Shown: positions 20,901 through 52,374, counted from the whole stretch's first letter. The stretch: 53,267 nt of DNA, filler included, from Jimgerdemannia flammicorona (GCA_003990765.1; 2 parts of 2 records of this genome joined end to end with filler, not necessarily neighbours in it); one strand, 5' to 3'. The notes: a model not told the origin generated them from the sequence alone. Numbers and translations: made by a program.

Positions 20901-23900
20901 ACGCGGCGACCCTCCAATTCTTGCTGGCCTGCAGAGGATAGTACATTCCGTAAACAATGCATTAAAATGGAAAATGACATGCAAAGTAAAGCATACGTGA
21001 AACAATTTAAAGAATTACCAAGCAAGCAGGAGATCTGAGAGACGTTCACGGGTGAACCCTTGGCCCCAGATACGGTCATCATTTGCATGTTGTTTTGGGG
21101 GAAAAGCTTGAGCTGAAAATGGGGTTCCGATGGTTAGGTATGTTACTATTGTTATATAGAAAGGTGTCATCATCGAAATGGTAGACCAACAAGATCACTG
21201 CGTATTTACCAATCCATCCGGTATACATTTTCCTATTATTGAACTTGTCAGTTTATTCATTTTAGTTTTCAACGCATTATCGAGTCCAGCCAACTTTTCA
21301 TCATCACGCAGCACCTCTTCCATGTGGAGTTGGAATTCTGAGTAGAAAATACCCAAGCTCAAACCATCAGTAACCATGACCACATAGCTTGCGCACGCAG
21401 CAATCAGAAATGCACCAAGGCACGAAAGTCTATCCAGCATGTGACACGGATGAAGATCACAGAGAACTAGCCCAGCCTTACCACGATCGAGTGTCTCTTT
21501 GTCTGCGATCTTCGCTGTCTCTGCCAGGCCCATATACTCCATGTGCGCATCAGCACCATCGTTCTTGCCTTTGTCGATCAAATTGCGACGCCATTTGTCG
21601 CCGTCCTCCTGCGAATGAAATTAGCCGTCGTGTGGGAATCATTTATTTTTCTCGACTTCAATGGATTACTCAATTACGACTACATAATTTGAGACTCACC
21701 GTCAATCGCAAATCATCCATCCGACAACTGAACCCCTTCCACTGCACGTATTTCGTGAATAGTCTCCCCAGAATGCTGAGTAGCTTGCCAGCAACGGGGG
21801 GGCCATACAACTCATAGCATGAATGCACCATACCAAATGACGAGGCGCCGAATTGGGATTTGTCTAGAACACCTGTGATCAGCTCACCGTCCATGAAAAG
21901 AATTGTACCCTCTTCAAGGCCATGAGGGCCCCAATATTTGCCAGGGACTTTGGCCTTAGAAGACATGTTGAGAGGCGGGTGTCCAACTGTCAGATTACCA
22001 AGGATTGTCGAAATCTGTAAAAATCGGTTCTTGTTAACTCATATACATGATTGTCACGGAACACAATCAGACAGCCCCTCCTCTACACGTACCACCTGTT
22101 TGCCTGTCCACATTGGTAATGGCTTACGAATTGCAGGCGGAACCGTCAAAACTCTCCCGCCACCAGTTCCATCATCTTCGGGCCTCAGTGCTCCATAAAG
22201 GATTTGCATGTATTCCTCACGAGAAAGAAACGTGTCGCGGGATGTCATCCACACTCCCGTGACGACATGATCCTGGATTAAACCACGAAGGGGGTTACCG
22301 GAGGTGGGGACAAGGTATTGGTTATCTGTGTTGGCAATCAGTGTGGCCTCAGCACGAGCTATTTCGTTCTGAGGGAAATGTACGTTCATCTCGTCGCCGT
22401 CAAAATCCGCATTATACGTATTACAATTGGCATAATGCATGCGGATAGTTTTCTCTCCCGGTAAGACCCGTGCGCGATGCGCCATGATGGATGGTTTATG
22501 TAGTGTCGGCTGGCGATTCAACAATAGCAGATCGCCATTACGGAGGTGACGGTAAACCTTTTTGTTTGTCGGTTGTGTGCGTACTGGGTATGCGCCCGTC
22601 ACCGACGAAGATACCGTGGAATCTTGAGGAGTCAGGAGTGTGTTGGCGAGGGCAATGCGAGACTCCACGCTCAGATTAGCCTAAAGGCGTTGTTCAGTCG
22701 CAATTCAATATCAGACATCTTCTATACCCAAGTAGTGAAAAAAATAAAATAAAATAAAATAAAAACCCCTTGCGAATTTCTATGTATTAAAGTAGGAATT
22801 GTATATACCAATGAGATTAGTGACCCATCTTCATGCTGAACATATGTCGATCCAGGCCACTTCTCAGGTCCATTTATCACCGCCCTCATCATTTCCTTGA
22901 TATTGTAATGTGTTACAGGCTCCGGATACGTCAACTTCTTGGCGAATACAGGAGGTATCCCAATCTCCGATGTTTCAATGTTTGGATCCGGCGAAATTAC
23001 TGATCGTGCCGCGTAATTCACACGCTTACCCATCATATGCTTTCGAAAGAGACCCTCCTTTTTCTCCAGCGCCTGTCTTATTCCTGCCGGGGGAAGCTGT
23101 CGTCCCTTCAGCACCATCGGGTTTTTCGTGGAATCTATAAACGAATTCACGTCGTGCTGGAGTTGAATGATGCCCGAAACCAAGAGATCAAATGCACGAG
23201 TACGCTCAGTTCTGAGTGGGTGCTTAGAATCCGTCATGGCGGCTTTGAACGCTGTGTTGAGGTCACGAACACGATCGCATGCATTCAGTATTTTGCTGAG
23301 GAGTTGGTTCTGCGGGGATTCAAACAGTTTGTCGCCCATGACCGAAGCCGGTCGGAAGCGTGTCGGTGCAACCGGAAGTGTTTCAATAAAGAAGAGATCC
23401 GGACTGGCACGGTTTGTTTTGCGACTATGAGGGCCGCGAGCACCATATATAAGGGAGGTGATCCGTTGCTCTCTCTCGAATAAAAGGCGGATATGGTCGC
23501 GAACGTGGATTGGCGTCATGTAAGTTTGACGCGTGCCAATAGATCTCTTTTCGTCAACCTCGCCTGCACCCGATCCGTTTGTCTTCCGTTTCGCATTTTC
23601 CTCTTCGCCATTTCCTTCTTCCTCACTCGTTTCTTCTGCGTGGTTGGTCACCATCATGTTTTCCTCCCTGTCATCTTCTCCATTATTCGCGTTTTCCACG
23701 TCCCTGGCATTATATCCGTCCTCCTCGGCCTCATCGTCATATACCTCCGTTACATTCCCAGTGGACACTCTATCCGCGACTTTCTTCTTCATAAATAAAA
23801 CGTCCGTTGCCACCATACCGTGAGCATCCATGTGCATCTGTTGCTTCTTCGTCAAAGAAAGCAGGAACACTTTTGCAAACCCGTCCTTACGGATGGCGCG

Positions 23901-25060
23901 AGCATACGCACCGCAATTTTCGCATTTCTTTTTGGCGATAACGCGTTTGAGAAACTCGCCCATCACCTTCTTGCGTTCATCATTAATAAGTGTGACTTTG
24001 TAGGAACCAGTGCTGGAGCGTTCCGACAACTCTTCAGCAAGGGCGTGTTTCACGTAACAGTCTATGGGAAATAAATTGGAATTGGATCAAGTCAGACATA
24101 TTCAAAATTCTCTTGTCATGAGCGGATTTCTGGCAGTTATAGAATCGCCATCGATCACAAAATACTCACCAATCTTCCTCATAAAAGCGTCAGCTCCCTC
24201 CTCTTCGTGGTCTCCATCGTCTAGGTCTACATTTTCTGCAGCCTCCTCTTCCATCGCTTTCTTTTTTCCTTTCCCGATATGCGGTCGCAGTTGGTCTAGC
24301 CCCTGGGCCTCAAAAATTAGGCCATGTTGCAAAAGAGTCAATTTCGCAGCCAGTCTATGGGACTGATATTAGAAGACGGTAAACATATCAGTTTCTTGCA
24401 AGTGATATTCGAAATTTGTTCATAATCCCCTCTGTTCCAGAGGATTTGACTATACCTCTACTTTCCCCATACGAAACTTGTGACAGTAAAAGCATTTCGC
24501 ACGCAGTATGGCAAAAAGGTGGTTGAGGAACAGAGGGTTGAAAACGGGTACGGGAAGCTCAATGTGTCCAAAATGTCCAGGACATGAGAAATGATCAAGT
24601 TGACATGTAGCACAGCTGCATATAGGCAATCATATAAATAGAAATAGATGAGTGCGGTAGGATTGGCAATAGTTTTCGATTGTGTTATTCGCAAACGCTG
24701 TCCCGCAGTCCGTTCATTGAACAGCATCAAGCGTACCACGCCTGGTATACTTCCGCCAGTTGTTAGCACCCATGGTTGGAAGGTTCTTGTTCACATCCGT
24801 TAATACTCCAAATCACAGCTGTCATTCATATTGGAACCATCCGTCTCGAACCTCAGCAAGAGACAGTTTACATACATATGGTGTTTGTCATAAGGCCCGA
24901 GTGCAGGATCGTACAGACCGCCTTTGGTTGGATGATTTAGATTATCGAAAATTGTAGGATTAACAATTTGCTTGACGGATATCTTCTTGATTTCGTCAGA
25001 GTCGTAAAATGAGAAAGAGACCGAGGTGATCTCGGTCCCAAGTGGTCGCGCGATGTTCAT
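17932..25060 (-). CDS. RPA1: DNA-directed RNA polymerase I largest subunit (A190), about 19 exons
   Basis: Starts [19 protein letters not shown]. Contains GLYDPALGP, the [10 protein letters not shown] zinc site, [26 protein letters not shown], catalytic [10 protein letters not shown] (about 22390-22420), [44 protein letters not shown] and [12 protein letters not shown]. Ends [28 protein letters not shown] with the stop at 17932-17934. GT-AG introns can be traced between the ORF fragments. Confidence 0.97.
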
Positions 25061-26590: not shown

Positions 26591-26690
26591 NNNNNNNNNN
26601 NNNNNNNNNNNNNNNNNNNNNNNNNNNNNNNNNNTTAATTAATTAANNNNNNNNNNNNNNNNNNNNNNNNNNNNNNNNNNNNNNNNNNNN
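26591..26690. other. Artificial contig linker (44 N + TTAATTAATTAA + 44 N)
   Basis: Exactly 100 bp and symmetric, with stop codons in all six frames. The flanking contigs are 26590 and 26577 bp. Confidence 0.97.
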
Positions 26691-29710: not shown

Positions 29711-32492
29711 TAAGAAGGAGGTACATCTTCTTCAAGTCAACCATCTCAAGAGGAATGTCCTCCAGCAAGTATACTGCCAATAAGCCAAACTGCACAAGAA
29801 TATCATCCTGGAGCCTAGAGAACAAACCACCTTCGAAATCTTTGCACCACCCAACCCCAGAAATTTTTTCTTTGAACCCAATGAAGATATCTCACACCTG
29901 GACATAGAAGGACACGTATTCCCCAACAAGATGAATCCAGTATATTCTCGAGTAACCAACTGAAGTTGGGAAACCATCATCTTGCCAAAAGGAACTATCA
30001 TAGGGCATCTGGTGCCTTTTCTCAGCCAAACTTATAGAGAAGTTTATGAACTAAACTTATCAAGAAATGGCAAAAGGTTCCAGAAGAAAGGAAAGGCCCC
30101 TCTGTGACCCAGGAGATAGTAAAGCCTTTCACCAATATTGAAGAAGAATTGACACCCCAACAATAGCAACAACTAGTAGAACTTCCCAACAAATATCAAG
30201 ATATCTTCACTACTAATTATGGCAACCTGCCATACAATCTATCATATTACCACAGCATAAATATACAAAATGCAACACCCATCCAGCAGAAACTCTATAG
30301 AATACCCCATTACTTGAAAACATTTGAAAAAGAGCACATTCAAGAACTCTTAGACAATGGAGTTATCTGACCCTCTACCAGCCCCTGGGCCAGCCCTATA
30401 CTTATTATACCAAAGAAAAGAAGATGGAGACTCTGTATAGATTACAGAAAACTCAACTCAGTCACTGAAAAGAATGTCTATTCTTTGTTCAGAATTGATA
30501 ATCTTTTGGATCAGTTATAAGATACCAGATACTTCAGCAGTATGGACCTTTTCACAGGATTCCATAAGATCTCCATAGACCCCAAAGACATTCAAAAGAC
30601 AGCCTTTCTTACTCTAGAAAAACTGTTTAAATATCTCTGAATACTCTTTGGACTTTGCAATACACCCCCCACCTTTCAGAGAATGATGAATTCAGTCTAT
30701 ACCCCCTTGATCCATCACTACCTGATTGTATATATAGACAATTTTAATATCTATTCAGTAAATTTTGAAGAACACCTGTACTACCTAGAGGAATTCTTCA
30801 AGCTCACCTGCAAGAACTACCTGAGACTCAATGTAAAGAAATACTATTTCAGAAAACAGAAACTTGAATTCCTTGGATTTATAGTTTTGAAAGAAGGAAC
30901 TCATACAGATTTAAAGAAAACTGAGAAGATTAACAACTGGTCAGTATCCAAGACCCTGAAGGAAACACTATCATTTCTGATACTAGTATCCTACTATAGA
31001 AGATTTATTAAGAACTTCACCCAAATCACTACCCCAATCTGAGTCCTTCTCAAGAAAGAAGTACCTTATAAATAGACAGAATTACAAGAAAAAGCCTTCA
31101 AAGAACTCAAGAACCACATGACCACAGCACCAATCTTTGTGTGCCCCAATCTATAGAAGCTATTTATCTTGTACACAGATGCTTCTAAAGATGGCCTAGG
31201 AGCAGTTTTAGCCCAAGAAAAATCTGACCAACAGTACTATATAATAGCTTATGCAAGCTGAGCTAATTAGCAGCAGATGAACTATAGTAGCACCAAACTG
31301 GAATGTCTTGCAGTCATATGAGCAGTCACTCTGTTCAAGTATTACCTCATCAGAAAAAGATTCAACCTGATCACAGACCATATAGTCCTCAAATAACTAT
31401 TCAACTGCAAGAAACCTACCAGAATCCTAGTTTGCTGGATCCTTATTCTTCAGGATTACAAAATAACCATTATCTACAAAGTAGGGAAAGCTTACAACAA
31501 TATTGATATACTTTCCCACCAGCCCCAATAAATCAGAAAAAGGATGTTCTGAGGAACTACACCCTAAAGGAAACTCCTCAGACCATTAAGACACAAGAAG
31601 ATCTCATCTGAAAAGAACATCAAAAAGCCCATCAAGGATAAGTAAACATAGAAAAAAAGTTGTGAACAACATACCAACATTGGCCCAATCTCAGAATACA
31701 AGTCTGTAACATACTCAAGAAACGTGACACCTGCCAGAAGTACCAAGGAAGGAAGAATTATCAAGCACCATTGCAACCAATTGTACCACTAGACAACATC
31801 TTTCAGAGATAGAGAGTAGATATAATTGGACTCCTACCCATTACACCAAGAAGAAATAAATATATTCTTATATTTATGGAATATCTAACAAAGTGGCCTG
31901 AGGCTTTCCCAATAGAAATCACAGATGTTTTAACCATTGTAAGCCTTCTCCATAGACTCACACTCAGATATGGACTCCCAGAAGAACTTATCTCCAACTA
32001 AGGCACAGAATTCATCAATAACATAATCACAAGTTATACCCAAATTTATAAGATCCACCTCAAACAGACTATATAATATTACCCTCAGACCAATGATATG
32101 ACAGAAAAAATGAACCAAACTATCAAGAAAGGACTTGCCTGAATCAATCCTACCAACTGAGATCTCTGCTTATCTGAGATTCTATGGGAAATTCAGAACA
32201 CCCCTGCTATCTCTATAAAATAAAAGCCATTCAAAATGATATTTGCCAAGAAAACCAGAACTGCTGACTATGAGAATCTTGGAGACTTCCTCAAGAAGGC
32301 AGAACAGTTACATAATCAGGCCCAAGTTCAGATTACCAAGCCCAAGAAAGACAAAAGAAGTACTATGACCAGAAACAGAAGGATCAGAAGATCAAGATTG
32401 GAGATCAAGTACTAGTTTGAAGAAGCATGATTGAAACAAACTTTGCTGCCAAATTGGAGCCCAAATGGGAAGGATCTTATCTTGTATATAAC

Positions 32493-36108: not shown

Positions 36109-39100
36109 TTACCTGGCTTGCTTTGGTGCAGAAGGCACCACGCTTCTTAAAGTGGATTTTGTGTATAACCGACTGCGTGAACTTTCTACGAGCGTGGACC
36201 TCGACCCGGAGGCGATCGCGGCTTGTATTTTTTTAAGATGTGCCGAGGCTTCAGGGGTGATGTTCCGCCAATCTTCTGTTTCTATGCCTTCAAGATCACA
36301 CAACACCTTGTCGATGGTCGGGCGCATTTCGGGGTCAGGGTTCCAGCATCTCATATAGATATCAGAATATTCGGTCGGTGTTCCCGGGATGGGTTCTTCG
36401 CGCAATCCAAGGGCGGCAGCATCGGGAGGATTGATTGCATTTCCTCGAGGACAGAATCTTGCAGTAATTTGCCATAGAATTGTTCCAAGACAGTATATGT
36501 CAGATTTTTGTGTATAAGACACAATGATCTCCTTGAATGCTTCCGGTGGGAAATACTCAATCTGCCCGTAGATGTGACTACCATATTTTTGAAAGTGTTC
36601 GACAGTATTGCTTATACCAGCATCAATGATCATAGGGTTTAAATGGGTGGTATCTAAAAACACAATATTTCCGGGATGCAAGTCACCGTGGATCAAACCT
36701 GCTTTGTGAATCATTTGCAACCTGCGGGTGATCTCGGTAGCAATCTGCCACACTTTCAACCAGGAATTTAGTGGCGATATAGTGAGGAGTTGTGTAAGAT
36801 CACCACCAGTAGCGTATTTCATCACCAAAATGTAACAGCCAGTTGTATCATCCATCGATAATCCTATGACTGTGGGCACCGCTGCACTCTGGGAGTTATT
36901 GTGGATCTGAAGGTAGATGTTGACTAGTAGCTATTTGTAACAAGAAAAATGAATTATCATAAAAATTAATTGTAAACATTAAACTTTAAATTTGTAACAG
37001 AATAAGTGAAACCCACCTCATATCGCAGTTGATCTATTACAATGATACTCCGTTTCAATATCCTCAAAACAACAAACGTTTTCCGTTTCTGATTATCATA
37101 CACCATGGCTTTGTATACAGTTGCAAATTCACCTTCGCCCAACTTTTCTATCAATGTGAATTGGCGGTAAGGTATCCAAAATATGCAACCTGCAACCTCA
37201 ATCATTCGTAGCATTGCCAGGCACTGAAAGAGCTTATCCTCGTCACCGGGAAACTTGGATTTAAGCATTGACAGAATACCGGCATCAGATGTTTTAAGAA
37301 TAGCTTGAATCTGATCAAAAGTATAAGGGACCTTGGTGGAAAGATCATTTGGAGGAGGCGGCGAATAACTTGAAGCTGTCCATTAAAATGAGCAAAAATG
37401 TAAATATTGTAAACTGTATCCCTGAAACCATAGATAAACATAGTTCTAACATACCAACGCGGGTCGCGTTTCGATTCAAAGCATCACCAAGGAGGCGTGC
37501 GGTTTTGATAGTGATATTGTTCCCTACATATAAAAAGGGAGGGGTGAATGCACACGGACAAGCCATGAGTTGGAGGCCATCAGGTAGCTACAAAACCACA
37601 TCTCACAGTTTTAATATACCAATAATATGAAGCGTTTTCAGAGTCGTGTTCTGCATCAGAGATTCGGTCAGTGCCTGTGCTCCCTCATCGCTGATATTGG
37701 TGTCTAAGAAAGAATAACGGATGGATGAGCAAACACGCCTATGTTATGAGCAGTATCACGGAGTTCTATACAAAAATTCACACAGTTCTAACATACGATT
37801 GAGATTCAGCATAAATAGGGTCACATTTTTCTTCAAAGTTTCGGCCAATGCGCGTGCTCCCTCTGCACCGATGATATTAGCTGAATTCAAACAGAGAATA
37901 TATATTCAAGAGTAAGCAAGTTGAGATAAAATATATGAAATAGCTGCAAACAAGCATTCATACAGTCCAAACATACATTGAAGATTAAGCATCGTCAGGC
38001 TCGTGTTTTTCTTCAGAGATTCGGCCAGTACGCGGGCTCCCTCAACGCCAATATTGTTGTCTGAAGATAAAATAAGATGGGCGATATCCATTTCATGAGC
38101 TGGAACCTACCACGCAGTTGCATACTAAAAATTACACAGTTTAAACATACAGTTGAGATTCAGCATTGTTAAAGTTTTGCTCGATTTCAAAGAATTGGCT
38201 AGAGCGCGTACACCCACATCGCCGATTTTGTTGCCTAACGATTAATAGGAGATAGATGAGCCATAACCACAATGTCAGCTGGAACTCATTATGGAGCGGA
38301 AAATAATTATTCCCCCATTTATAACATACGATTGAGATTCAATATAGATAGGGTCTTGTTTTGCGTTAGAGATTCGGCCAGTGCGCATGCTCCATCTGCA
38401 CCAATATTATTGGCTCATGGCGAAAAAACAAATAAGCTGGTTGGGAGCTTTAACACAAGAAAGAGTTTCAAACAACTGTTCAATAGGTCAAACATACATT
38501 CAAGATTAAGCATGGTCAGGGTCGTGTTCTTCTTCAGAGAAACGGCGAGTGCGCGTGCTCCCTCAACACCAATGTCGTTGTCTGATGAATGAAGAAAATG
38601 CAAAAATTGTTAGCTGGCTTTCACCAACCAGCTGCAAAGAACAGCAATGTAGTTAAAACATACGAATGAGTTCCAACGTAGTCAGGATCCCGTTTTGCTT
38701 CAGCGACTCAGCCAGTGTTTGTGTTCCTATAGTACTGATCGTGTTAACTGAAATTGAAAACAAAGCGGTGAGCTAGAACTCATTAAGCAGCGGCAAGCCA
38801 CAGTTGACACAGCCCTAACGTACAATTAAGATTCAGTGTGGTCAATGTCGTGTTCTGCTTCAGAAGCTCAGCAAGTGCATATGCTCCCTGGACACCGATA
38901 TCTTTGGCTGAAGATGAATAAGAGATAGTGGATTAAACACGTATAAGCGGTGGGTTGGAATATATCACACAGCAGCAAACTACAGTTCACATACTTCTCA
39001 TACCTCTGAGATTCAGCGTGGTCAGGAACGTGTTGTTCTTCAAGGATTCGATCAATGCACGTGTTTTCTCGCCACTAGTTCTTTTATCTGAACACCACGT

Positions 39101-40891
39101 GTAAAGGGTTAGCTATATTTCAGTGCAAACTGTTCCAAAACACAGTACGCACCTGAAGGATCACCAAACCACAACTCGAAATTGGGGTTTGGCTCGAACA
39201 CCAAAACGGGAGCCTGCTTGTCGGTAGAAACGTTCCTTGAGTTCAATCCTTCCGATGTCGAGGTATCTAGCGCGCGTTCAACAGATTTACAACAAGCGTC
39301 AACATCCGAAATCGGAGCTTCTTCGAAGCTGGTGGTCGTCCCGTCGATGTCTGTAATGGTAATCAAGGGGATGCTATGGGAGGCTGCATGGGGGGGGTGC
39401 GGGGAGAATATTTGGGAGATGGTGGCTGTCGGCTCTTTTGGCTCCGGAGAGGCCATTTGGGATCTTTTGGCATTCAAAGTTTTCGGCTGCGAGGAGTGCA
39501 TTTGGGAGGTATTGGCTGGCTGCGGGGGAGACATTTGGGGGATATTGACATTCAACCCTTCTGCTAGTGAGGAGAGCTCCCAAGGTTGTGGTGGAAATAG
39601 TGACTCTTCACTATAGGCAGAAAAAAGGGAATGCTGGGTCAGTGAACAAGTGGAATAAAAGCAAATAGATAGAATGTGTCAGTGTCATACCAAAAGCTAT
39701 AAAATGGGATGTCATTGTAAAGGATGAAAATGATATACTTCAAGCAATTCACTAGTGGAAGCCCGCTGCTCAGGATCTCGTTTAAAGCATAGGTTCATGA
39801 AATCCTCCAGCTGGCTGTTCAAATTCTCCGGATAGGGTGGCCGACCTTGCTCAAAAATTTTTCGCTTCATCTAATATTAAATTGTATAATCTTATATATA
39901 AATAATTAATTGATATATAGTGCAACAAGACAATGCTCTGATAAAAGAATCTGAAAACAATAAACCTCTTTATCTTCTAGGTTGTCATCTTCATAAGGCG
40001 CCTTGCCGTGGTTAAGCATCTCAAGAACTACGATGCCTAATGCCCAAATGTCAGCCTTTAGGTCGATGACCTCGCCTTTACAAACTTCAGGAGCCCAAAA
40101 TAGTATGACGCCAGCATTTTCGACTGACGAGTCCACAGTAGGCGCCGAGGAGCTGACGCCGAAGTCACCTGAATGAGTGATTAAGTGAGATTGAGGGTAA
40201 GAGGATAAGTAGGAATTAGCATTGGAATGTGCGAAGCCTCTCAAGATGATATAATTGTACAACGTATTTACCAATCACAATGGTGTTGTCTTTGCCAAGG
40301 AAGACGTTTTCACATTTAATGTCGCGATGGATGTAACCGTGCCTATGAATTTCCGAGAGGCCTGACACAAGCTGCGGTATTTGTGTTAGCCGAATGGCAG
40401 GATTGAAGGACGAGGCACGAATTATTTGGGGTGGTTCCAAAACGCCATACATCGTACAACATATCTTAAGGGGTATAAAGCACTATACTGACCCCTTTGA
40501 GGATAAAGACCATTTGCGACAAAGAGACGCGGTTGACGGAGCAATACTCTTGCAGGGTCCCGCCGTCGTAGTACGGCGTTATGAGAAAGACGTAGCCTTC
40601 GTAGATGTGGACGCTGAGTAGTCGCAGAATATTTGAATGTTGGCATTTGGCCATGGTGTCTATTTCGGTTTCAACGAGCTCCTTGGGCATTACAACGGTT
40701 TCCGAGTCCTTGCTGTACACGATCAAGTACTTTTTGATGACCACAATCTGTCGCGCGCCGCTGACTTCGTGGCACAGGTACACACTGCCCTGTGCCGAAG
40801 GCCATGTGGGTTTTATGGCGCTGAGGCCCGCATAATCGAATTGCGGATCAGAGAAGTGTATGGGGACGCCCTCTATTAAATGATCCGCCAT
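36109..40891 (-). CDS. Dual-kinase LRR protein of about 1,100 aa: STE20-like kinase, P/S-rich linker, 10 RI-like LRRs, TKL-like (pseudo)kinase; 17 exons
   Basis: Hand-traced GT-AG exons in one frame: 40891-40493, 40371-40272, 40168-39966, 39870-39739, 39633-39153, ten LRR exons between 39087 and 37455 (or 37440), 37375-37017, 36930-36109. Kinase 1 has VVIKK, HRDIKCEN, DFG, WAPE, DIWALG. Kinase 2 has WIPYRQF..IEKLGEGEF, HGDLHPGNI, DAG, YFPPE, KSDIYCLG, RCWNPDPEMRP. The N-terminus may extend by a few small exons. Confidence 0.85.
37440..39087 (-). repeat. Array of one-LRR-per-exon cassettes
   Basis: 84-nt exons at 39087-39004, 38907-38824, 38747-38664, 38581-38498, 38413-38330, 38234-38151, 38060-37977, 37880-37797 and 37703-37620, plus 37523-37455 (or 37440). 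Consensus xNxIGxEGARALAESLKKNTTLTxLNL. Confidence 0.92.
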
Positions 40892-41391
40892 GTGCTTGGG
40901 ATGGAGGACGTCGTTTAGGTTGATGAGTTTTGACTAAGCGTCACGTGAACAAGAAAATAAGTTGGTGTGGCTTGGTCTTTGTGCGTACCGGAAAAGTCGT
41001 CTCTATCGCAACCTGTCAAGCCTGGAAAGTGACCTATTCTACGCGGATTCCTCTAGTAGCCCACACCGAAAATCAAATACGTCAAATCTGGGCTATATTG
41101 CTCCTGCAACCTAATCCATTTTTAAAGCACTGCCCAAGTTTACGGGGATATCTATAGAAGCACTTGGCTTGTGTATAGCGGTAAGTGAAGTGTATGGATC
41201 CCTTCCGCCATTGTTCAACATGAATTGCACCATATATCCACAAATGTGTCAGGAAACCACTTCGAATTAACATGCTTCATTAAAGACAAACCATATCACA
41301 AATGTAATAAAGAAAAAAAAAAAATACAAATGTACAGAATATTAGTTAAATATAATTAAAATATTTATTAAAGTTATTATTTATAATGAAT

Positions 41392-41847
41392 TGTTATATA
41401 TAAGCCACTAGAATTTCTGATGGAAATTCTGATGAAAATTCCTATGATAATTCTTATAGAATTTTCAACTAATAGTCATAGATACCAAATATAGTATAAC
41501 TATATATATATACTCAATATACTATATTTAATCATAGCTTCAAATCTGTATAAATATTCTTTATACTGAGTATATTATAATCTAGCTCTATACTCTCTGA
41601 CTATATATAAGAATAAAGCAATATTCTTATTATAGAACCCTCAGATCCAACTTGTTAATGATGCTGAGCCTGATCAACTTGGGATATAAGTATGACTCTT
41701 TTACTAATATAAGAACTCAAAAGTAATACTTAGACTACATCATTACAACAGGCAATTAGAACTTAGTACTTTCCTACAAATATTTAGAACTTAGAGCCAA
41801 TAGTTATCTATAATATATTAATTCTATCAGTATATTGTTTTATTATA
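41392..41847 (+). repeat. LTR (TG...TA, decayed CA end) followed by a PBS-like ATTTGATAGTAG
   Basis: Homologous to 11970-12427 and starts TGTTATA. Confidence 0.75.
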
Positions 41848-43347
41848 ATTTGATAGTAGTAAAAGTTATTTCTATCTAAAAGTAAGTTTTTCTTAAGAAA
41901 CTTACTATGAATATAGACTACTTAGTTAATATCACTAATATTATTAGTAATAACTAAAGAATACCTTTATTCTGACTACTCTTTAGAACTAAGCTAAAGA
42001 AGCTAATAGATCATTACTGAGTAGACTGAGACCTATACTAGCTAAGAGAAATTCAATAGACTCAACAATGAAATTATTCAAGAAGTATTCAATATATTTA
42101 TCATATTTAATAAAGAAGTTATCTATACTTAAGAAATTAGAAAGAAATTCAAAGATTAATTAATAGCTACTTTTATTAAAAATATACAAATAAGTCTATT
42201 GAAGTTATAAGTAAATATTTTCTAAATCTTCTCTCTAATAACTACTACTATAAAACCAAGACCTTTCTAAACTACTAGGAATATTATACCAACTAAAGAA
42301 AATTCTACCTCTACTACTAAGTCCTTTATATATAAGTAAAGATAATTCAATTATGAGGATTAATAACTACTAGACTCACTAAAGTCTCTGCCATATTATC
42401 TTAATCTAGAAAAATAATTGAAAAAATATCTAAACTCAACAATAGTGACTTCAGTACTACTATAGACCCATTATTAAGAATACTAAATTTACTGAAAATT
42501 ACTGTAGAAGATCAAGCAATAACTTGATTAAAACTACCAATCTATAGACTAGTTATTAAGTTCACCTATCTTGATAATATATAAAAGAAACAACTAAATA
42601 TTACACTATCTCTGATATAATAGTATTTAAAGAAAGACTACTACTATTTTACTATATAAGTAATAGAATGATATTAGTAGATAAAAAGATAGTAGCTCTG
42701 GCTGACTAAGTGATCATACTTATCCAAGCCCTCTACCTTAGTATCAAAACAAACAAATCTACAAAAGACCACTACCTTATATCATTTAAAGGTAAAGCAG
42801 ACTAAGTAATAATATTTATAAAATAAGTTAATACTAATTAATATGATAATAGATAGAATAATAATTAGAACTCAGATAGTATCTTTAATAATAATAAGTA
42901 TTATAATATTGAAGATCTCTATATAACTATAGACTCATAAGTAGAAAAATCACTATCTATTTCATAAGTATAGCTGCTCAATAGTGATACAATCTCTCAA
43001 TATTCTCTTATCTGAGAAACCTATATTGAAATCAATATAAGTGAAGAAGATAATAATTGCTCTAACTATAAAGTCTACTCAGCAACTATGAGCATAAAGG
43101 AGCTGATCATCCAACAGTTCTATAGCTCTATCTATATTGCTAAAGCCAGAACCAAACTCAAGAATCTCTAATTCTATAATAATAGAAAAGAAGACTTAAA
43201 AACATTCATAATAAGATTCTCTCCTGAATACTATAGAGGTAGAATATAGCTGATAAGAACAAACTGTGAATAGAACCAGAGCAGTATACTTCTTTAATGC
43301 TATTTCTGAATAATTATCAGAAAAGATATAAGAGCAAGGATAATTAT

Positions 43348-44844
43348 TATAATGGTGATCTCAGAATGATGACATCAGCACAGAAGATAGCCTTTCCTCA
43401 CAAGCCACCCAATTGAAGTACAAGAAGATCATATAGTATATGAGATGAGCAATAATGACCAACTGTAAGTCATTGTGACCACAGTACAAGCATCCTGAAG
43501 ACTATAAAAGAAGGATCAAGGAACTGCAGTAGCAGTAACCAATAAGAACCACTAATTCCAAAATAGCTCAAAGACTTACCACAAATGAAATACCTGCTAC
43601 TCGCCAAACCTCAAGATCAAGGAATCACCAAGATATCTCAGTCAAGGAGAGAATGCTCTAAGATATCAGAAGAGCTATGAGGACCCACTCAAGAAGGACT
43701 CCTAGTATTGATCTGGGTACTATAGACTCTTATCACTTTATCCTCTACTGCTGTAAAATAGAAACAAGGATTACTATTGCTATTGAATGCCTCTAAATAT
43801 GGTAGAAGTATGAAATAGAAAACCTCCTCTGCCAGGAGTTCCCACAGACCAGCACTCAAGAGCTACAAGATACCACTCCCATGAATATATATAAAACAAG
43901 GACAGTTAAGAAGATCCATCAGATCTTCAGGCATATACTATGGTTGATCCCCAACTTGGAGTATGTTAAAGTCTCAGATTTCAGAGACCTGTCATTCCAC
44001 CATATCAATGCACTAGAAGCTAGGGTGGCTACAGAAGCCCAGTCCACTATCACCCTCAATAGTGATGAAGTAGAAGACTTCTGACATCCCATCCTCCAGA
44101 ACAACCCAGACCAATTCCTACAAGAGTTGATCTCAGTATTCCAAGACCCAAGCATCCAGATTAGACCTCTCTAAGACTCTACATTTGTTCCCTATTTTGT
44201 AGAAGAGAACCTCATAGACTGGAGAGCCCCAGACCTCCTTCCCACTGCCAAATGTGATGACATCATCAGCAATGATGTCATCCCATGTAACATCAAAGTA
44301 CATGAAAATGATGAATTCATAGACCTCATCTCCTTCAAAGATATCCTGATCTCTAATGATGAGGATAAAGCCCCCATGGTCCTGAACTTTCTGCTCTAAG
44401 TTCTTTGTTATACTAAATAATGCCAGCACTGGCATTCTGAGGTGATGCAAAATTGTTCCAGCACTAGTATTCTGATATAACACTGAATTATACCAGCATC
44501 CTGAACCTATACAACCATCAGTACCAACTCTGGAACTTAGTAGTTTTAGTTATTGGAATTTATATTTAGCTTTATATCTTAGCAACCATTGGATTATATT
44601 TTGTATAAATACCCCTCTTATTTCCTCTGAAATAAAGTTAGTTCCTCTCAGTATAATATATATACTTTCTTGCAAGCAATCTAAGAGATAACAAGACAGT
44701 TTAAAGATAAGAAGTTTGAGGACTATAAGACCTTGGGAAGGCACTCCAATAAGAACTTGCTTATAACAAACTTGAGTTAGTCTAAGAGATACATCTTGAA
44801 GAGAATCTGGGGTATTTGAAGGACTCAGTGACCACTACATGACA
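43348..44844 (+). repeat. 5' LTR of element B (1497 bp)
   Basis: Starts TATAATGGTGATCTC (decayed TGTAACGGTGACCTC) and ends CTACATGACA. Colinear with 50503-52021. TATAAAA at 43503-43509. Confidence 0.95.
43590..44399 (+). pseudogene. LTR-encoded ORF, 5' LTR copy (269 codons, start decayed to ATA)
   Basis: Same 810-nt frame as 50745-51554. Most of its stops differ from those in the 3' copy. Confidence 0.7.
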
Positions 44845-44847
44845 ACT

Positions 44848-44864
44848 TGGTACCCATTGGCTGG
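44848..44864 (+). promoter_or_regulatory. Primer-binding site of element B (TGGTACCCATTGGCTGG)
   Basis: TGG start 3 nt after the LTR-terminal CA. Cognate tRNA not identified. Confidence 0.7.
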
Positions 44865-44964
44865 TGATTCAAGATGAATCCCTCACTTTCAAGCTGAAAA
44901 ACGAACAATCCCCACAATAACTACCCTGATTACAAGAGTCACCCCTGCAAGAATTCAAGACAAG

Positions 44965-47900
44965 ATGGAAATACATCCCCTCACATTCTATAGATATACT
45001 ACTAAAGAGTCAATCCTGACCTTCATTAAAGACTTTAAACAATTTGCCACTATATGAGCCCTTGGTATAGATGCTCAATTGGCCCTTCTACTAGTCAGCC
45101 TCAGAGGACCTACCAGAGACAAGTTCAATGCAGTCACTATTGCTGATGCTGGTGCAGCCAAACTTGTCAACATGAAGGCCTTCCTCAGAACAACATATTA
45201 TACTGAAGAGATCAAGCAAGCTCTCAAGAATCAACTCAATACTATCTGCCAGAGACTTAGTAAAGATTCCAACCCATTCTATACCCAAATCTGCCACCAG
45301 ATTATCTTGGCTGGCTATGATGACTGCCTCAAGGAACAAATAGCAGATTCAACCTTCCTCAAAGGAGTTCACCCTGAAATTGCCCTAGCAATCTGGTCTA
45401 CCTCAGCTGCACTGACCCTTGATCAGAAAGTGGTCTTTGTATAGAGATATTGGACTACCAGACATCCTGCTGAATACTTAATAGAGAAAATAACTGGTAT
45501 TAAGATGGAGCCATCAAAGCTAACTAGTATCATACCTACCACAGTTGTAAACAGACAACCAACCCCACCTACTCTCAAGACAGCCAAAGCTGACCCAGTG
45601 GAAGAACTTGCCAAGCAGTTCACTGAGATGATTGCACACCTTGGTGATGTTGTTAGAGAAGTCTGAAGTGCCAACAGAAGACCAGTATAGAGATTTGCAG
45701 CTGCTACAGAAGAATGCAATATCATATACTTCAGATGTGGAGAAGAAGGCCACTATGCAAAGAATTGCATGACTGAAACAAGATGCAAAGCCCAACCAAG
45801 CAATGCTAGCAGAACCAGAGAACAAACTAATACAGTAGTTATCGAGGAGATTGGTGACACTGATGATAAAGAATACTATGAGGAGCTCAAATTCTACCCT
45901 GCTACTGAAGGTACCAGAACCTGGTCCAAGCCCTATGACAAGAAGAGCAACAGCAAGCCAGTTGGAAGACTAAAGAAGACCCCAGCTGTCACTATTCAAA
46001 GTAAGACCCAATCTGAGGAGATTGATCAAGATATAGAGTTAGATAAAGCTGCCCACCAAATCATTGAAGGCACTCCTCCAGTCTCAAGAGAAAGTGAAAG
46101 CAAGAAGGAACAGAAGCTGTACAAGACCAAGATCTACTAGTATGATATCTACAAGGACCTCAAGAAACAGAAGGTCAATGTCACCTTTGGACAGCTAGCT
46201 GAAGTCCCTGCCTTCAGACAGCAGTTGAGAGTAGGACTTGCAACTACTGCCAAGAATTAAGAGTACAAGATTTTAGAAGCTCACAATGTACAGGAAGAAT
46301 CTGAGAACTCAGGTGAAGAATCTGAAGACCAGTGCAAGACATCAGCCTATACTCCATGTCAGATTGAAGACTGTATCTTTGATGCCATCATTGATACTGG
46401 TGCTGGAGAATGCCTCATGAGCAAGAAGACAATTGACCACCTAGGTTGGGACATTGAAGAGTCCACCAAGATGGTCTATGTTACAGCAGATAGTATATGA
46501 GCTACCCCCCTTGGCAAAATCTGAGAAGTCTCCATCAAGATAGGAGGAGCTACCATCTCAGTAGATGTGATTGTCACAAGTACTACCAACTATGACATCC
46601 TCATTGGCAACCAATGGCTTTACAAGGCCAAGGCCATCATTGACCTCAATGCCCAGAAGATGCAGATCAACTATAGAGGAAGAAAGATATGAGTCTCTAT
46701 CAATGTTCACAAAGGAGTCCTATCAGACATAGAGGAAGGAGATGAAGAGGACACAGAGGTCTTCATGTACTTGGTGAACAAGAATAAGAACAAGACACCC
46801 AAGCTCACAGATGAGCAGTGGTACAACAAGATTATCAATGGGTATGCCCCTCAAGGAAGATGCCCCCATGGTACTAGGATATACTGCACTGAACACCTGA
46901 ATGACTACTGGTCCTATATCAGTGAAGTTAGGAAAATCTGTCAACAGAAATATGAGCAAGAAGCCACTGAAGCAAGAAGGAAAGCTGAAGAAGATAACCA
47001 ACCCCCAGAGCTTCAGGCTGACAGTGATGATGAGGAGGAACAAGAATCAGACATCACTCTCAAGGTTAAGAAGTTTCACCCTGAAGCCAAAATCCCAGAA
47101 TATAAGACTGAAGGAGCCATAGGAATGGATATTGCCAGCATTCAAGATGCTACTCTTGAACCACAGACCACCACCCTACTTGGCACTAGAATTGGAGTCA
47201 AGCTGCCAGAGAACCATACCAGAATTATCAAGACCAGAAGCAGTCTGGCCAAAAGCGAAATCTCAGTTAAAGGAGGAGTAATTGACCCTGATTATACTGG
47301 TGAGATCTTTATCATAGTCAGGAATCACAACCCCACCACCCCATTTGAAGTCAAGAAGTATGACAGGATTGGCCAGATGCTGGTCCACGAAATCAAGAAG
47401 CCCAAGATCATAGAAGCCATTGAACTCATCATGACCAAGAGAGAAGAATAAGGCTTTGGATCTACTGGAAGAGGAGCCTATGCTGCCACCAAGATTACTG
47501 AACTTGAGCACAAGAAAGACAAGGACCAGAACAAGCATATATACACTATTGGAGAAAACTTTCCCCTAGAGGAATAACTTCTCAAGGTCCTGCATCAGAA
47601 TGCTACAAACTTCCAGGATATCTACAATCAAGAACCCAAGCACTACTATAAAGTTGACACTGGTAATACCAAGCCCATCTACCAGAAAGCCAGACCCATA
47701 CCACCTGCCTACAGAGAATGGCTGTGAGCAGAACTCAAGGAAATGGAAGAAGCTGGAATCATCAAGCAAGCTATCAGCCCCTGGACCTCACCCATTGTCC
47801 TTGCCCCAAAGAAAGGAAGCAAGCCTGGAGAGTTTGCACCAAGACTCTGTATTGACTACAGGAAGCTCAATGCCATCACCAAGAAGGATAGGCAGCCCTT

Positions 47901-48942
47901 GCCAAATATTCAAGAAATTCTTACTACCCTTGAGAGTGAAGCCAAATACTACACTACCTTGGATCTGTTCTCAGGCTTCCATCAGATTGGTCTCACTCAA
48001 GATGCCAGTGAGAAATCAGCCTTCATTACACCTGATATCACCTATATCTACCTGCGAATGCCATTTGGAATATGCAATACCCTAGCAAGTTTCCAGTGAA
48101 TGATGAACAGAGTCTTTAGCAATGAGATTGGAAAATAGCTCTTTGTCTATATTGATGATGTCAATTATATACAGCTAGCCCTCAAGAAGCTCAAGGAGCA
48201 TAGCCTCTACATCAAGCCCAAGAAATGTAAGTTTGCAGCTCAAGAAATCACCTATCTAAGACACCTCATCAACCAGACTGGAATCCACACAGACCCTATA
48301 AAGATTGAGGCTGTTGTAGCCTACCCAAGACTCAGAACAACTACAGAAGTCCATGCCTTCCTTGGACTGGCCAGTTACTACAGAAGGTTCATCAAAGGAT
48401 ACTCCAATATTGCAGCATCCATCTATGAGCTACTGAAGAAGGAAACCAAATTTGAATGGACCAAGGAGTACCAAGAAACCTTCAATGAACTCAAGACCAG
48501 GTTGACCCAAGCACTTATCCTCAGAAGACCAGACTGGAATCTAGAATTCATCCTGCAGACAGATGTAAGTGCTATAGGACTTGGAGCAGTCCTAGCTCAG
48601 AAGAAAGATGAATATGAATATATTATCTCCTATGCAAGCTGAGGTACCTGTAGAGCAGAACAAAACTACAAGTTATGTAAGCTTGAATGCTTAGCAGTAG
48701 TTTGGGCAGTAGACAAGTTCTACTACTACCTAGCTGAGAAACACTTCACCATTCAAACAGACTACTCTGCTCTTGCCTGACTATTCTACACTCTGAACCC
48801 CAAAAGAATATATACCAGATAGATCTACAGACTGTAAGAGTATGACTGTACTGTCAAGCACTACTCAGGAAGAACCAATATCAATGCTGATGCACTCTCA
48901 AGGACACCCTGAAACACCCCCAACAAGACCATTCAATCATAA
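44965..48942 (+). pseudogene. gag-protease-dUTPase-RT-RNase H polyprotein of element B, single frame with premature stops
   Basis: ORF fragments starting at 45079, 45769, 46765 and 47743 share the frame of ATG 44965 through DALSR at about 48900. Confidence 0.9.
47053..47469 (+). pseudogene. dUTPase domain of element B, between protease and RT
   Basis: AKIPEYKTEGAIGMDI, KTRSSLA, GGVIDPDYTGEIFII, DRIGQ, REE*GFGSTG. Confidence 0.95.
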
Positions 48943-50167
48943 ATAAGGAGCTATACTATGGATTAATCAGCTATCTTAGGCAGGGGAAGATGTCCAACCA
49001 CCTTGAACCCTGGATAATCACTATTATCAACCAGACTTAGAAACAGTTTGAACTAGACAATACTACACTTAGAAAAGGAGAAAACTAGTAATATCTGAAC
49101 ACAAGAAGTATTATGTAATGAAGGAAGTATATGAGCAAGGACACCTAGGAGGAACCAACACATATGACAAGGTAAGAAGAACCATATAGTGGCCCAAGAT
49201 GGAAGAAGATCTGTGCCAATTTGTCAAAGGGTATGACAAGTGCCAAAAACAGAAATAAGATCAACAAGACCAGGCACCCAAGTCATCAAGAATTGAGCCT
49301 ATCTCCTTCCACCACATCACAATGGATATCATTGGGCCACCAGCAGTAATACTATCAGGAAACTGCTATATTATAGTTATTGTAAACCTCTTCACCAAAT
49401 GGATAGAGGCAGGAGCATTACAAGAAGCCAATGCTCTCTCTATAGCTGACTTCCTGTACCGAGAAATCATCTGCCACTACAAGACACCAAAGCAAATCAC
49501 AACAGACTGCGGCATAGAATTTGCTAATGGATTCCACAAGATAATATATCAGAAATATAAGATCCAGCACATCAAGACCACTGTATATCATTTTCAAGGA
49601 AATGGACAGATAGAGAGAACTAACAAGACCCTTAAGAACATCTTAGCAAAGATCTCAGAGATATATGAGAATTGAGATAACTATCTCCCAACCACCCTCT
49701 CTGTCCTACAAGATATATGGTCACAGAGCACACACTTTACCCCAAGGGAGCTGCTCTTCAGAGAAGAAGATTCTGATGGAACCTCAGTTATAAATCTAGA
49801 CCTAACTTAGAGACTGGTTGATGCAGAAATCCAGAGACTACACCAAATCAAGAAGAAGGCTGAAGATTACATCATCAAGTCACAAGCGCTGACAAGGAAG
49901 AATGTGGAAAAGAATCACAAGGCCCTAGAATCCATCCAAATTGGAGAAAAGGTTCTACTGTATCAAAATATAGTAGAAGCCTCATGGTCACGAAAACTGG
50001 AGCCCAAATGGAAAGAATCCTTCTACATATAAGATATCAAGAGAACTACCTTCTAGCTTAGAAAAATCTCAGAGACCATACTGACTATCATGGTACATAG
50101 GAACAGACTCAAGAAGTACCACAAACCTATACAAGAGAAGCAAAATGTGATATATAACCACTCATGA
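48939..50167 (+). pseudogene. Integrase of element B (no chromodomain seen)
   Basis: HHCC region GHLGGTNT...WPKM...DKCQ, DDE core in ORF 49322..49675, then KLEPKW and VHRNRLKKY. One frameshift near 49075. Stop TGA at 50165-50167. Confidence 0.88.
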
Positions 50168-50478
50168 GATTCTAGTCTGCAAATCATAACAGCATATCCT
50201 GTGACCAGCAGGCTATCTGTCTGGACTATTCTCTAAGAGATATGGCACTGGCAACTACTCATCCATGAGACTTTCAAAGTCAGAGGAGTTCAAACTGTCA
50301 ACTGATTGGTCAAGATCAGAATTAGGCCCTTGCTCTATATAAAGAGAGCAACTCTTCACCATTATGTCAAAATACAAAAGAAAGACACCAGCTCATAAAT
50401 ACCACTTTTCAACCCCTTGCCAGAGGTTATGGGATTAGCAAATTTTTCAGGACTGGACCAATGAATAAGGATGCTTAA
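50164..50478 (+). pseudogene. Putative ORF3 of element B (about 104 codons)
   Basis: The ATG overlaps the integrase stop as ATGA. Reads MRF*SANHNS...AICLDYSLRDM...N*ALALYKE with three internal stops. Confidence 0.45.
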
Positions 50479-50490
50479 GAAGATCCTTAT

Positions 50491-50502
50491 TTAGGAGAAA
50501 GA
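50491..50502 (+). promoter_or_regulatory. Polypurine tract of element B (TTAGGAGAAAGA)
   Basis: Purine run immediately before the TGTAAC start of the 3' LTR. Confidence 0.8.
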
Positions 50503-52021
50503 TGTAACAGTGACCTCAGAATGATGACATCAGCACAGGAGATAGCCTTTCCTCATAACCCACCAGATCAGAGTACAAGAAGATTATACAGCATACAAGA
50601 TAAGCAATGATGACTAACTGTGAGTCATTGTGACCACAGTACAAGCATCCTGAAGACTATAAAAGAAGGATCAAGGAACCATAGTAGTAGCAATCAACAA
50701 GAACCACTAATACCAAAATAGCTCAAAGACTTACCACAAATGAAATGCCTGCTGCCCACAAAACCTCAAGGTCAAGGAATCACCAAGGCATCTCAGTTAA
50801 GGAGAGGATATTCTAAGACATCAGAAGATCTATGAGGATCCACTCAAGAAGGACTCCTAGTGTTGACCTGGGTACTGTAGACCCTTATCACTTTATCCTC
50901 TACTGCTATGAAATGGAAACAAGGATCACCATTGCTATCAAATGCCTCCAAATGTGACAGGAGTATGAAATAGAAAACCTCTTCTACTAGGAGTTCCCAC
51001 AGGCCAACACTCAAGAGCTATAAGATGCTACTCCCATGGATATATGCAAAATGAGGACAGCTAAGAAGATCCATCAGATCTTCAGGCATGCACCATGGTT
51101 GATCCCCAACTTGGAGTATATTAGAGTCTCAGATTTCAGAGATCTGTTATCCCACCATATCAATATACTAGAAGCCAGGGTGGCTACAGAAGCCCAGTCC
51201 ACTATCACTCTCAATAGTGATAAAGTAGAAGACTTCTGGCACTCCATCCTCCAGGACAACCCAGACCAATTCCTATAAGGGTTGATCTCAGTATTCTAAG
51301 GCCCAAGCATCCAGATTAGACCTCCCCAAGACCCTACATTTGTTCTCTATTTTGTGGAAGAGAATCTCATAGACTGGAGAGCCCCAGACCTCCTTCCTGC
51401 TGCTGAACATAATGACATCATCAGCGATGATGTCATCCCATACAATATCAAAGTACATGAAAATGATGAATTCATGGACCTCATCTCCTTCAAAAATATC
51501 CTGACCTCTGATGACAAGAATGAAGCCCCCATGATCCTGAACTTTCTGCTCTAAGTTCTTTATTACACTGAATAATACCAGCACCAGTATTTGATGTAAC
51601 ACTGAATAATGCCAGTATCGGTATTCTGAGGTGATGCAAAATTGTTCCAGCACCAGTATTCTGATGTGATACTGAATTATACCAGCATCCTGAACCTGTA
51701 CAACCATCGGAACTTAGTAGTTTTAGTTATTGGAATTTATATTTAGCTTTATATCTTAGCAACCATTGGATTATATTTTGTATAAATACTCTTCTTATTT
51801 CCTCTGAAATAAAGTCAGTTCCTCTTAGTGCAATATATACACTTCCTTGCAAGCAATCTAAGAGATAACAAGATAGTTTAAAGATAAGAAGTTTGAGGAC
51901 TATAAGATCTTGGAAAGGTACTCCAATAAGAACTTGCTTATAACAAACTTGAGTTAGTCTAAGAGATACACCTTGAAGAAAATCTGGTGTATTTGAAGGA
52001 CTTAGCAACTACTACATGATA
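50503..52021 (+). repeat. 3' LTR of element B (1519 bp)
   Basis: Starts TGTAACAGTGACCTC and ends CTACATGATA. TATAAAA at 50658-50664. Confidence 0.95.
50745..51554 (+). pseudogene. LTR-encoded ORF, 3' LTR copy (269 codons), unknown protein
   Basis: MPAAHKTSRSRNHQG ... EAPMILNFLL*. ORF-track pieces 51036..51278 and 51354..51554 are in this frame. Confidence 0.72.
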
Positions 52022-52374
52022 TTATATAATTATCTACATAAGCAATGAGACTTAGGATAAGTCATTATCAGGGTATATATAATCTTAATAGCTCAAAGAC
52101 CAAGAGACAATAGAAATAATAACAAAGAAGACAAAGTGAAATCAATTTAAGAAGAAATACAAATCTCAGAATAACTTCTCAAAATTTCAAAATAGATTCA
52201 AAAAATTGTCTAATAAGAAAATAGAGAAACTCATCAAGAAAGGAGTATGTTTTCACTGCAAAAAGAGGAGATATATATCTTATAAATACTCTGACAAGAA
52301 GACCAATATGAATAAAGAACTATTCTTCTTACATACTATCACTATAATAGAAGATGATCTCAAAGAAACCTCTG

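Follow-up and report, generated by a model that had tools for sequence, protein, structure and literature searches.

Can the long terminal repeat (LTR) of a fungal retrotransposon be home to a protein gene? The question is raised by a stretch of 53,267 nucleotides (nt; filler included, and called the window here) from Jimgerdemannia flammicorona (GCA_003990765.1), in which positions 43348-52020 are one complete but dead LTR retrotransposon, and in which an earlier note, made without database searches, had placed a protein gene inside both LTRs of a Gypsy element. From sequence comparison we concluded that the 810-nt frame in question is very probably the decayed remnant of a genuine protein-coding gene of about 270 codons, and that this gene was open or nearly open when this copy inserted. 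Its residence in the LTR is real for this element, the one case directly seen, and probable across the wider family.

The frame aligned without a gap across the two LTRs, as had been claimed, lying 242 nt inside the 5' edge of the LTR and 466 nt from its 3' edge, and within the window it was present only in these two places (Table 1). Each copy was disrupted separately, by C>T and G>A changes resembling repeat-induced point mutation (RIP). The earlier note had described stops that are complementary between the copies, naming four of the nine private ones; all nine faced CAA, CAG or TGG in the sister copy, each being one transition from the sister's sense codon, and those left unnamed there showed the same pattern. 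Because the decay is RIP-like, every private stop takes the form of CAA or CAG turned into TAA or TAG, or of TGG turned into TGA. The start codons form a similar pair, the ATG of the 3' copy facing ATA in the other, and the single shared stop proved to be the TAA at codon 24, a position where all six relatives covering it have a sense codon, glutamine in the two closest. Across the ungapped LTR block, 117 of the 122 differences were transitions, the differences between the LTRs being mostly CpA/TpA and TpG/TpA, and the observed/expected ratio of CpG was 0.02-0.05 in the element versus 1.21 in a neighbouring polymerase exon (22722-24086). The decay thus reads as a RIP-like signature plus CpG loss.

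Might the frame be an accident of non-coding LTR DNA, and the database proteins that resemble it artefacts of gene callers? The run free of shared stops measured 245 codons in the gene frame versus 38-98 in the other five frames. Shuffling by column never gave such a length in 5000 trials and shuffling by triplet gave it in 11 and in 18 trials of 5000, which argues against such an accident. Favouring it are the unnamed, automatically called entries in which the relatives are found, all on short contigs of 600-4848 nt, together with the poor structure models described below and a long antisense open frame over the gene's 3' third in both copies. The last of these, on the minus strand at 51288-51713 (141 codons) and 44133-44549 (138 codons) and open in both LTRs, also overlies the 35-nt repeats, has no Pfam match and may merely mirror the codon bias of the acidic tail.

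The relatives themselves bear on the same question. We searched with the 3' copy read through, with X at its stops, against a set of 5.8 billion proteins and obtained four relatives, including P0003, an intact protein of 271 amino acids (aa) that is 67% identical across 100% of the query and has glutamine at codon 24. An exhaustive profile search of 1.84 billion representatives yielded five true relatives, adding more distant members, and contained no cellular family among its matches; P0014, a 698-aa ankyrin-repeat protein (expect value, E, 5.8e-4), was discarded as a chance match. After the last profile search there were 12 distinct relatives, 27-79% identical among themselves and divided into three subfamilies (P0003/4/5/6/10/16/18, P0011/12 and P0013/15/17), the two distant ones sharing 27-47% identity with P0003. 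Relatives at that distance remain open over 200-342 residues, blocks are kept across the subfamilies (WxEYEI, HQ(I/V)FRH.P, LE..VA.E..S.I, LQDN and F(Q/E)GP.I), and the several length differences among relatives preserve the frame. The start MP..R..QT is found in five relatives representing all three subfamilies and again in the 3' LTR copy. In the window, RIP-like decay put four to five private stops into each copy within 11% LTR divergence, so that the openness of the relatives is not expected of drifting non-coding DNA, and we consider an accidental frame highly improbable. At 60 of the 65 codons that differ between the window copies, one copy retains a residue that an intact close relative also has, the pattern expected of independent decay from one intact ancestor. 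The claim of a nearly open reading frame belonging to a genuine LTR-borne gene was in this way supported by the intact relatives and the conservation across subfamilies. As a separate observation, P0017 shows C, W and H at positions for which its sister sequences carry R, which is CGN-codon decay as in the window copies and indicates that some of the database "proteins" are themselves decaying copies.

Contigs from four public runs, two of soil metagenomes and two of coded organisms, could be placed on the element at 80-99% likeness, 6057 of them from run X1. The best-supported differences within the gene (50839 T>C, 50957 A>G and 51315 A>G) each restore the residue of the relatives, and 50957 A>G abolishes the TGA at codon 71; a further 1377 substitutions stand beside those considered. 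Among the 12 indels considered, of 33 in all, none lay in the gene and 11 lay in the 390 nt after it. In one contig 149 nt stand in place of 113 nt of the acidic tail, which lengthens it by 36 nt and leaves the frame intact.

A genuine gene need not belong to the retrotransposon's own equipment, and it could be a passenger, taken over from either a host gene or a different mobile element without serving its carrier, with the wider protein family normally living elsewhere. Such capture by LTR elements is well known (parts of PMC5408684), no functional finding ties the protein to retrotransposition, and the 12 relatives are known as protein entries without genomic context. In contrast, the lack of any cellular family beside the five true relatives in the exhaustive profile search, the short unnamed contigs that carry all relatives, as expected of repeats, and the retention of the start codon and motifs across subfamilies all argue against a passenger, as does the coverage of the gene in all four runs by the same 80-99%-alike contigs as the rest of the LTR. 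We regard this origin as quite unlikely. A search with the family alignment against metagenome, genome and viral contig collections gave no confirmed nucleotide loci of relatives. A search with the pol fragment P0009 gave three loci, which matched in the dUTPase part only (38-42% identity) and were set aside unused.

The LTR around the gene is laid out in the same order in both copies: TATAAAA, the gene, 35-nt repeats, a second TATAAA and AATAAA, the last two standing at 44604 and 44631 in the 5' LTR. The TATAAAA that had been noted about 80 nt upstream measured 81 nt before the ATG, at 50658-50664, with the same motif at 43503. The AATAAA at 51808 overlaps the expected start site of the second promoter, and a second TATAAA with AATAAA after enhancer-like repeats is the layout of a normal border between the unique 3' region (U3) and the repeat region (R). 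On the simplest reading the gene would be its own small transcription unit in U3 (TATA box 50658, ATG 50745, stop 51554), whereas genomic RNA would be started by the second TATA box (51781), 3' of the 35-nt repeats, and the AATAAA (51808) would serve both RNAs as polyadenylation signal. Each LTR would then be a self-contained cassette of promoter, gene and terminator of about 1.1 kb, the element would carry the gene twice, and reverse transcription would copy it from the 3' U3.

The same motifs can be read differently. If the first TATA box (50658) drove the genomic RNA, the gene would lie in an R region of about 1.1 kb and would be the first cistron before gag, an upstream accessory open reading frame (ORF) that happens to fall in the repeat. 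The TATAAAA at its fixed distance before the ATG in both LTRs would fit this arrangement, as would the LTR's sole AATAAA lying 3' of the gene and the gene's orientation, which is that of gag-pol. However, for LTR elements such an R would be unusually long by a wide margin, the translation of gag would have to follow an ORF of 270 codons, and the second TATAAA, preceded by repeats and overlapped by AATAAA, sits at the position of a normal U3/R border. We therefore judge transcription through the gene from the first TATA box to be unlikely, and the U3 cassette, weighed against it, to be reasonably probable.

What the gene product might do can be approached only from its composition. Consistent with the absence of any domain recognised in the earlier note, Pfam searches with the window pieces and all members returned no family at E up to 10 beyond a sub-threshold ATG5_HBR match (E about 0.1, in three of 10 members), and a profile search of sequences in the Protein Data Bank (PDB) returned nothing at E up to 10. 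The protein belongs to an unnamed family of at least three subfamilies, for which no relation to a Pfam family or to a solved structure could be detected. No membrane segment was found, the maximum 19-residue hydropathy being 0.59-1.07. Residues 1-60 are strongly basic in the window's subfamily (isoelectric point, pI, 10.2-11.8 in P0001-P0003), and what follows them is acidic in every subfamily (pI 4.1-4.5). The proposed contrast of basic N-terminus and acidic C-terminus consequently held for the window copies and their close relatives, with the acidic part extending to all subfamilies and the basic part failing in the distant ones. Both AlphaFold2 models, of low confidence, consist mostly of helices through residue 185 followed by a disordered tail, giving a layout of partly basic N-terminus, helical conserved core and acidic tail. 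Such a distribution of charge would suit a nuclear regulator, and from it and the gene's position the favoured mode of action, weakly held, would be that of a soluble, trans-acting nuclear product that acts on the expression or silencing of the element itself. The trans-activator or anti-silencing factor suggested in the earlier note, which solo LTRs could still express, is likewise conjectural. That all LTRs, even solo ones, serve as cassettes for a trans-acting protein by which the expression of the family is raised or host defence (RIP, cytosine methylation or RNA silencing) is blunted is doubtful. Taken together, the best overall explanation, which we consider fairly probable, combines a decayed LTR-resident gene with a U3 cassette, the trans-acting regulator being its weak part.

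Several points weigh against this explanation. The promoter and polyadenylation roles were read from motifs alone, and location in an LTR is directly shown for one element alone. The Atlas model of P0003 has a predicted local distance difference test score (pLDDT) of 0.35, and mean pLDDT in AlphaFold2 was 45.8 (10 sequences) and 43.2 (14 sequences); none of the Atlas neighbours of P0003 was credible, feature matches of at most 0.83 being at chance level. Much of the protein may be disordered, and no function draws support from a fold. Distant subfamilies do not retain the basic N-terminus, their net charge there being 0 to +2. An out-of-frame ATG stands 5 nt before the gene start in both copies (50740 and 43585), which could belong to a short overlapping upstream ORF or be bypassed by leaky scanning. 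Between the copies, the first codon position holds 39 differences, the second 22 and the third 31, without bias; this is neutral decay after insertion, as expected, and is uninformative on earlier selection. Finally, protein databases list open frames only and intact close relatives could be young neutral copies, so that evidence of selection has to come from the distant subfamilies.

The domains of the element run in the order gag(CCHC), protease, dUTPase, reverse transcriptase, RNase H and integrase, the integrase after the reverse transcriptase as in Ty3/Gypsy elements, and paired direct LTRs are accompanied by a short target-site duplication, likewise as in that group. Domain order, the ATTAT duplication and the polypurine tract bear out the claim of a Gypsy element with true LTRs, and the element belongs with those Ty3/Gypsy retrotransposons that carry a dUTPase. 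The LTR pair aligned without gaps over 1075 nt, at 88.65% identity, and for a further 437 nt at 90.2% identity with 12 gaps, and the ends (43348-44843 and 50503-52020) were refined by allowing transitions at the edges; an end at ...CTACA was rejected for its mismatched flanks (TGATA vs ATTAT), and the ends flanked by ATTAT on both sides were chosen instead. In run X10 the match of one contig stops exactly at 50503, with 255 unrelated letters preceding, and another contig from the public runs crosses from the end of the LTR directly into the beginning of the internal region. The contigs of X10, which may be an RNA run, also cover LTR sequence ahead of the first TATA box and continue into unrelated flanks, and are uninformative on transcription. 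No chromodomain, the mark of the chromovirus branch at the C-terminus of integrase, was found at E up to 0.01 in three stop-masked frames, where decay may hide the signal. The stretch TTGGTACCCATTGG after the 5' LTR matched no tRNA, a tRNA-gene search of the window came back empty, and a search for self-priming found no LTR complement of at least 10 nt to the post-LTR sequence and only unconvincing ones of 9 nt. An Rfam search of the window found nothing.

Table 1. Features of the retrotransposon, its LTRs and the LTR-borne frame, in window coordinates.
Feature	Position	Strand	Remarks
Target-site duplication ATTAT, upstream copy	43343..43347	.	directly before 5' LTR
5' LTR	43348..44843	+	aligned with 50503-52020, 88.7-90.2% identity
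First TATA box TATAAAA, 5' LTR	43503..43509	+	motif
LTR gene, 5' copy	43590..44399	+	start ATA; 5 internal stops, codons 24, 69, 72, 165, 195
Internal region	44844..50502	+	many stops; Pfam matches in single ORFs and stop-masked frames, all domain coordinates converted from residue numbers
Primer-binding-site-like stretch TTGGTACCCATTGG	44846..44859	+	contains TGG; starts 2 nt past 5' LTR
zf-CCHC (gag)	~45730-45771	+	Pfam; coordinates converted from residue numbers
Aspartic protease	~46345-46668	+	Pfam; coordinates converted from residue numbers
dUTPase (PF00692)	47083-47469	+	Pfam, E 1.7e-25; between protease and reverse transcriptase
Reverse transcriptase	47806-48258	+	Pfam
RNase H	48457-48843	+	Pfam; frame change 3' of RNase H, before integrase
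Integrase H2C2	49106-49258	+	Pfam
Integrase core	49307-49582	+	Pfam
Polypurine tract AGGAGAAAGA	50493..50502	+	abuts 3' LTR
3' LTR	50503..52020	+	aligned with 5' LTR
First TATA box TATAAAA, 3' LTR	50658..50664	+	candidate gene promoter, from motif
LTR gene, 3' copy	50745..51554	+	ATG kept; 6 internal stops, codons 24, 71, 82, 93, 178, 185
35-nt unit, 3.5 tandem copies	51565..51687	+	just past stop codon; putative enhancer-like position
Second TATAAA (51781) and AATAAA (51808)	51781..51813	+	candidate genomic-RNA start; AATAAA putatively the poly(A) signal of both RNAs
Target-site duplication ATTAT, downstream copy	52021..52025	.	directly after 3' LTR

Outside the element, the minus strand holds intron-split exons for the largest subunit of RNA polymerase I at 19437-24086, with Rpb1 domains 1, 2, 3 and 5. 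Compared with the chains rpa1 and RPA190, which we take to be the fission-yeast and budding-yeast enzymes, they gave E of 2e-93 and 7e-89, the next polymerase I chain standing at 1e-44, and a second comparison gave 1.6e-87 and 1.8e-77 with the next at 2.5e-64. With the dUTPase between protease and reverse transcriptase, an arrangement described from fungal Gypsy elements (PMC2864245), and the RIP-like decay, these matches indicate from sequence that the host is very probably fungal. Two open frames with protein-kinase domains lie on the minus strand at 36109-36930 and 40466-40933, their nearest solved chains being of RIPK, NEK and MAP3K type (E about 1e-14), and another reverse transcriptase fragment (RVT_1, E 1e-10) lies on the plus strand at 30641-31042. 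An inverted repeat pair of about 330 nt and 80% identity (11966-12298 and 41525-41851) and a direct repeat pair of about 290 nt and 76% identity (37776-38064 and 38309-38585) are probably left over from other repeats. At 26591-26634 and 26647-26690 stand two stretches of 44 N each, either assembly gaps or masked sequence.

The LTRs of retrotransposons are treated as purely regulatory and are masked ahead of gene calling. If the cassette reading of this LTR is true, the gene would be the first sag-like accessory gene resident in an LTR outside retroviruses (sag being the LTR gene of mouse mammary tumour virus, MMTV), and the founder of a new protein family across several element lineages. Coding units may exist, or may once have existed, in thousands of LTRs, among them the solo LTRs that recombination leaves behind. 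An accessory function could be present at double dose in each element, and a function borne by the LTR would be passed on as reverse transcription copies U3. The unnamed family would join the short list of retrotransposon accessory proteins and offer a concrete candidate factor in the conflict between fungal genomes and Gypsy elements. If its function were regulatory, fungal elements would have arrived independently at the arrangement of complex retroviruses, in which regulators sit at the U3 end.

Among the known systems close to this one are the fungal Gypsy elements with a dUTPase between protease and reverse transcriptase: PosPlaTy3-5 of Postia placenta, elements of Phanerochaete chrysosporium and Tmt1 of Tuber melanosporum (available text of PMC2864245). 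They share with the present element a dUTPase inside pol at the same place and differ from it in that the available text of PMC2864245 mentions no LTR-borne gene, although a figure legend there lists an "add. ORF" of unassigned function in some elements, without stating its position. Extra ORFs are likewise described for other LTR retrotransposons, in the portions available of the reports on plant aORFs (PMC7264820), the CERV of Cer1 (PMC10309623) and captured ORFs of bdelloids (PMC5408684). These resemble the present case as lineage-specific extra proteins of unassigned or regulatory function with homologues in narrow groups only, but the aORFs, CERV and env-like genes lie, as there described, in the internal region, whereas the present ORF lies within the LTR and is duplicated in the 5' LTR. 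The available text of PMC7264820 makes no mention of an ORF in, within or inside the LTR. In the literature searched, which left subscription journals outside, a protein ORF inside an LTR was named only in papers on MMTV and in no Ty3/Gypsy case.

Complex retroviruses offer a second comparison. The nef gene of human immunodeficiency virus (HIV), bel/bet of foamy viruses and the pX region of human T-cell leukaemia virus (HTLV) are regulatory or accessory genes at the 3' end that reach into U3, and the accessory proteins of these viruses are small and non-enzymatic, some with acidic activation regions, and act in trans on expression. The present gene resembles them in its position at the U3 end of the element and, in the proposed layout of partly basic N-terminus, helical core and acidic tail, its product resembles their regulators. 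In contrast, nef, bel/bet and pX start in the internal region and merely overlap U3, and no sequence match to the retroviral trans-activators (Tas/Bel1 and Tax) was found by Pfam or PDB profile.

The closest parallel is with MMTV sag, where, as here, a whole protein gene lies inside the LTR and hence in both LTRs of the provirus. In our element too the ORF is wholly inside the LTR, its placement in U3 being suggested by motifs only. Sag is a type II membrane glycoprotein that acts on host T cells, whereas the present protein has no membrane segment and no match in Pfam, including the Sag family, and is carried by a fungal Ty3/Gypsy retrotransposon without env. The gene counts as an accessory gene of a retroelement, but its seat is the LTR of a fungal Gypsy family and it is the founding member of a so far unnamed protein family; what it has in common with MMTV sag is the gene's place and not its descent.
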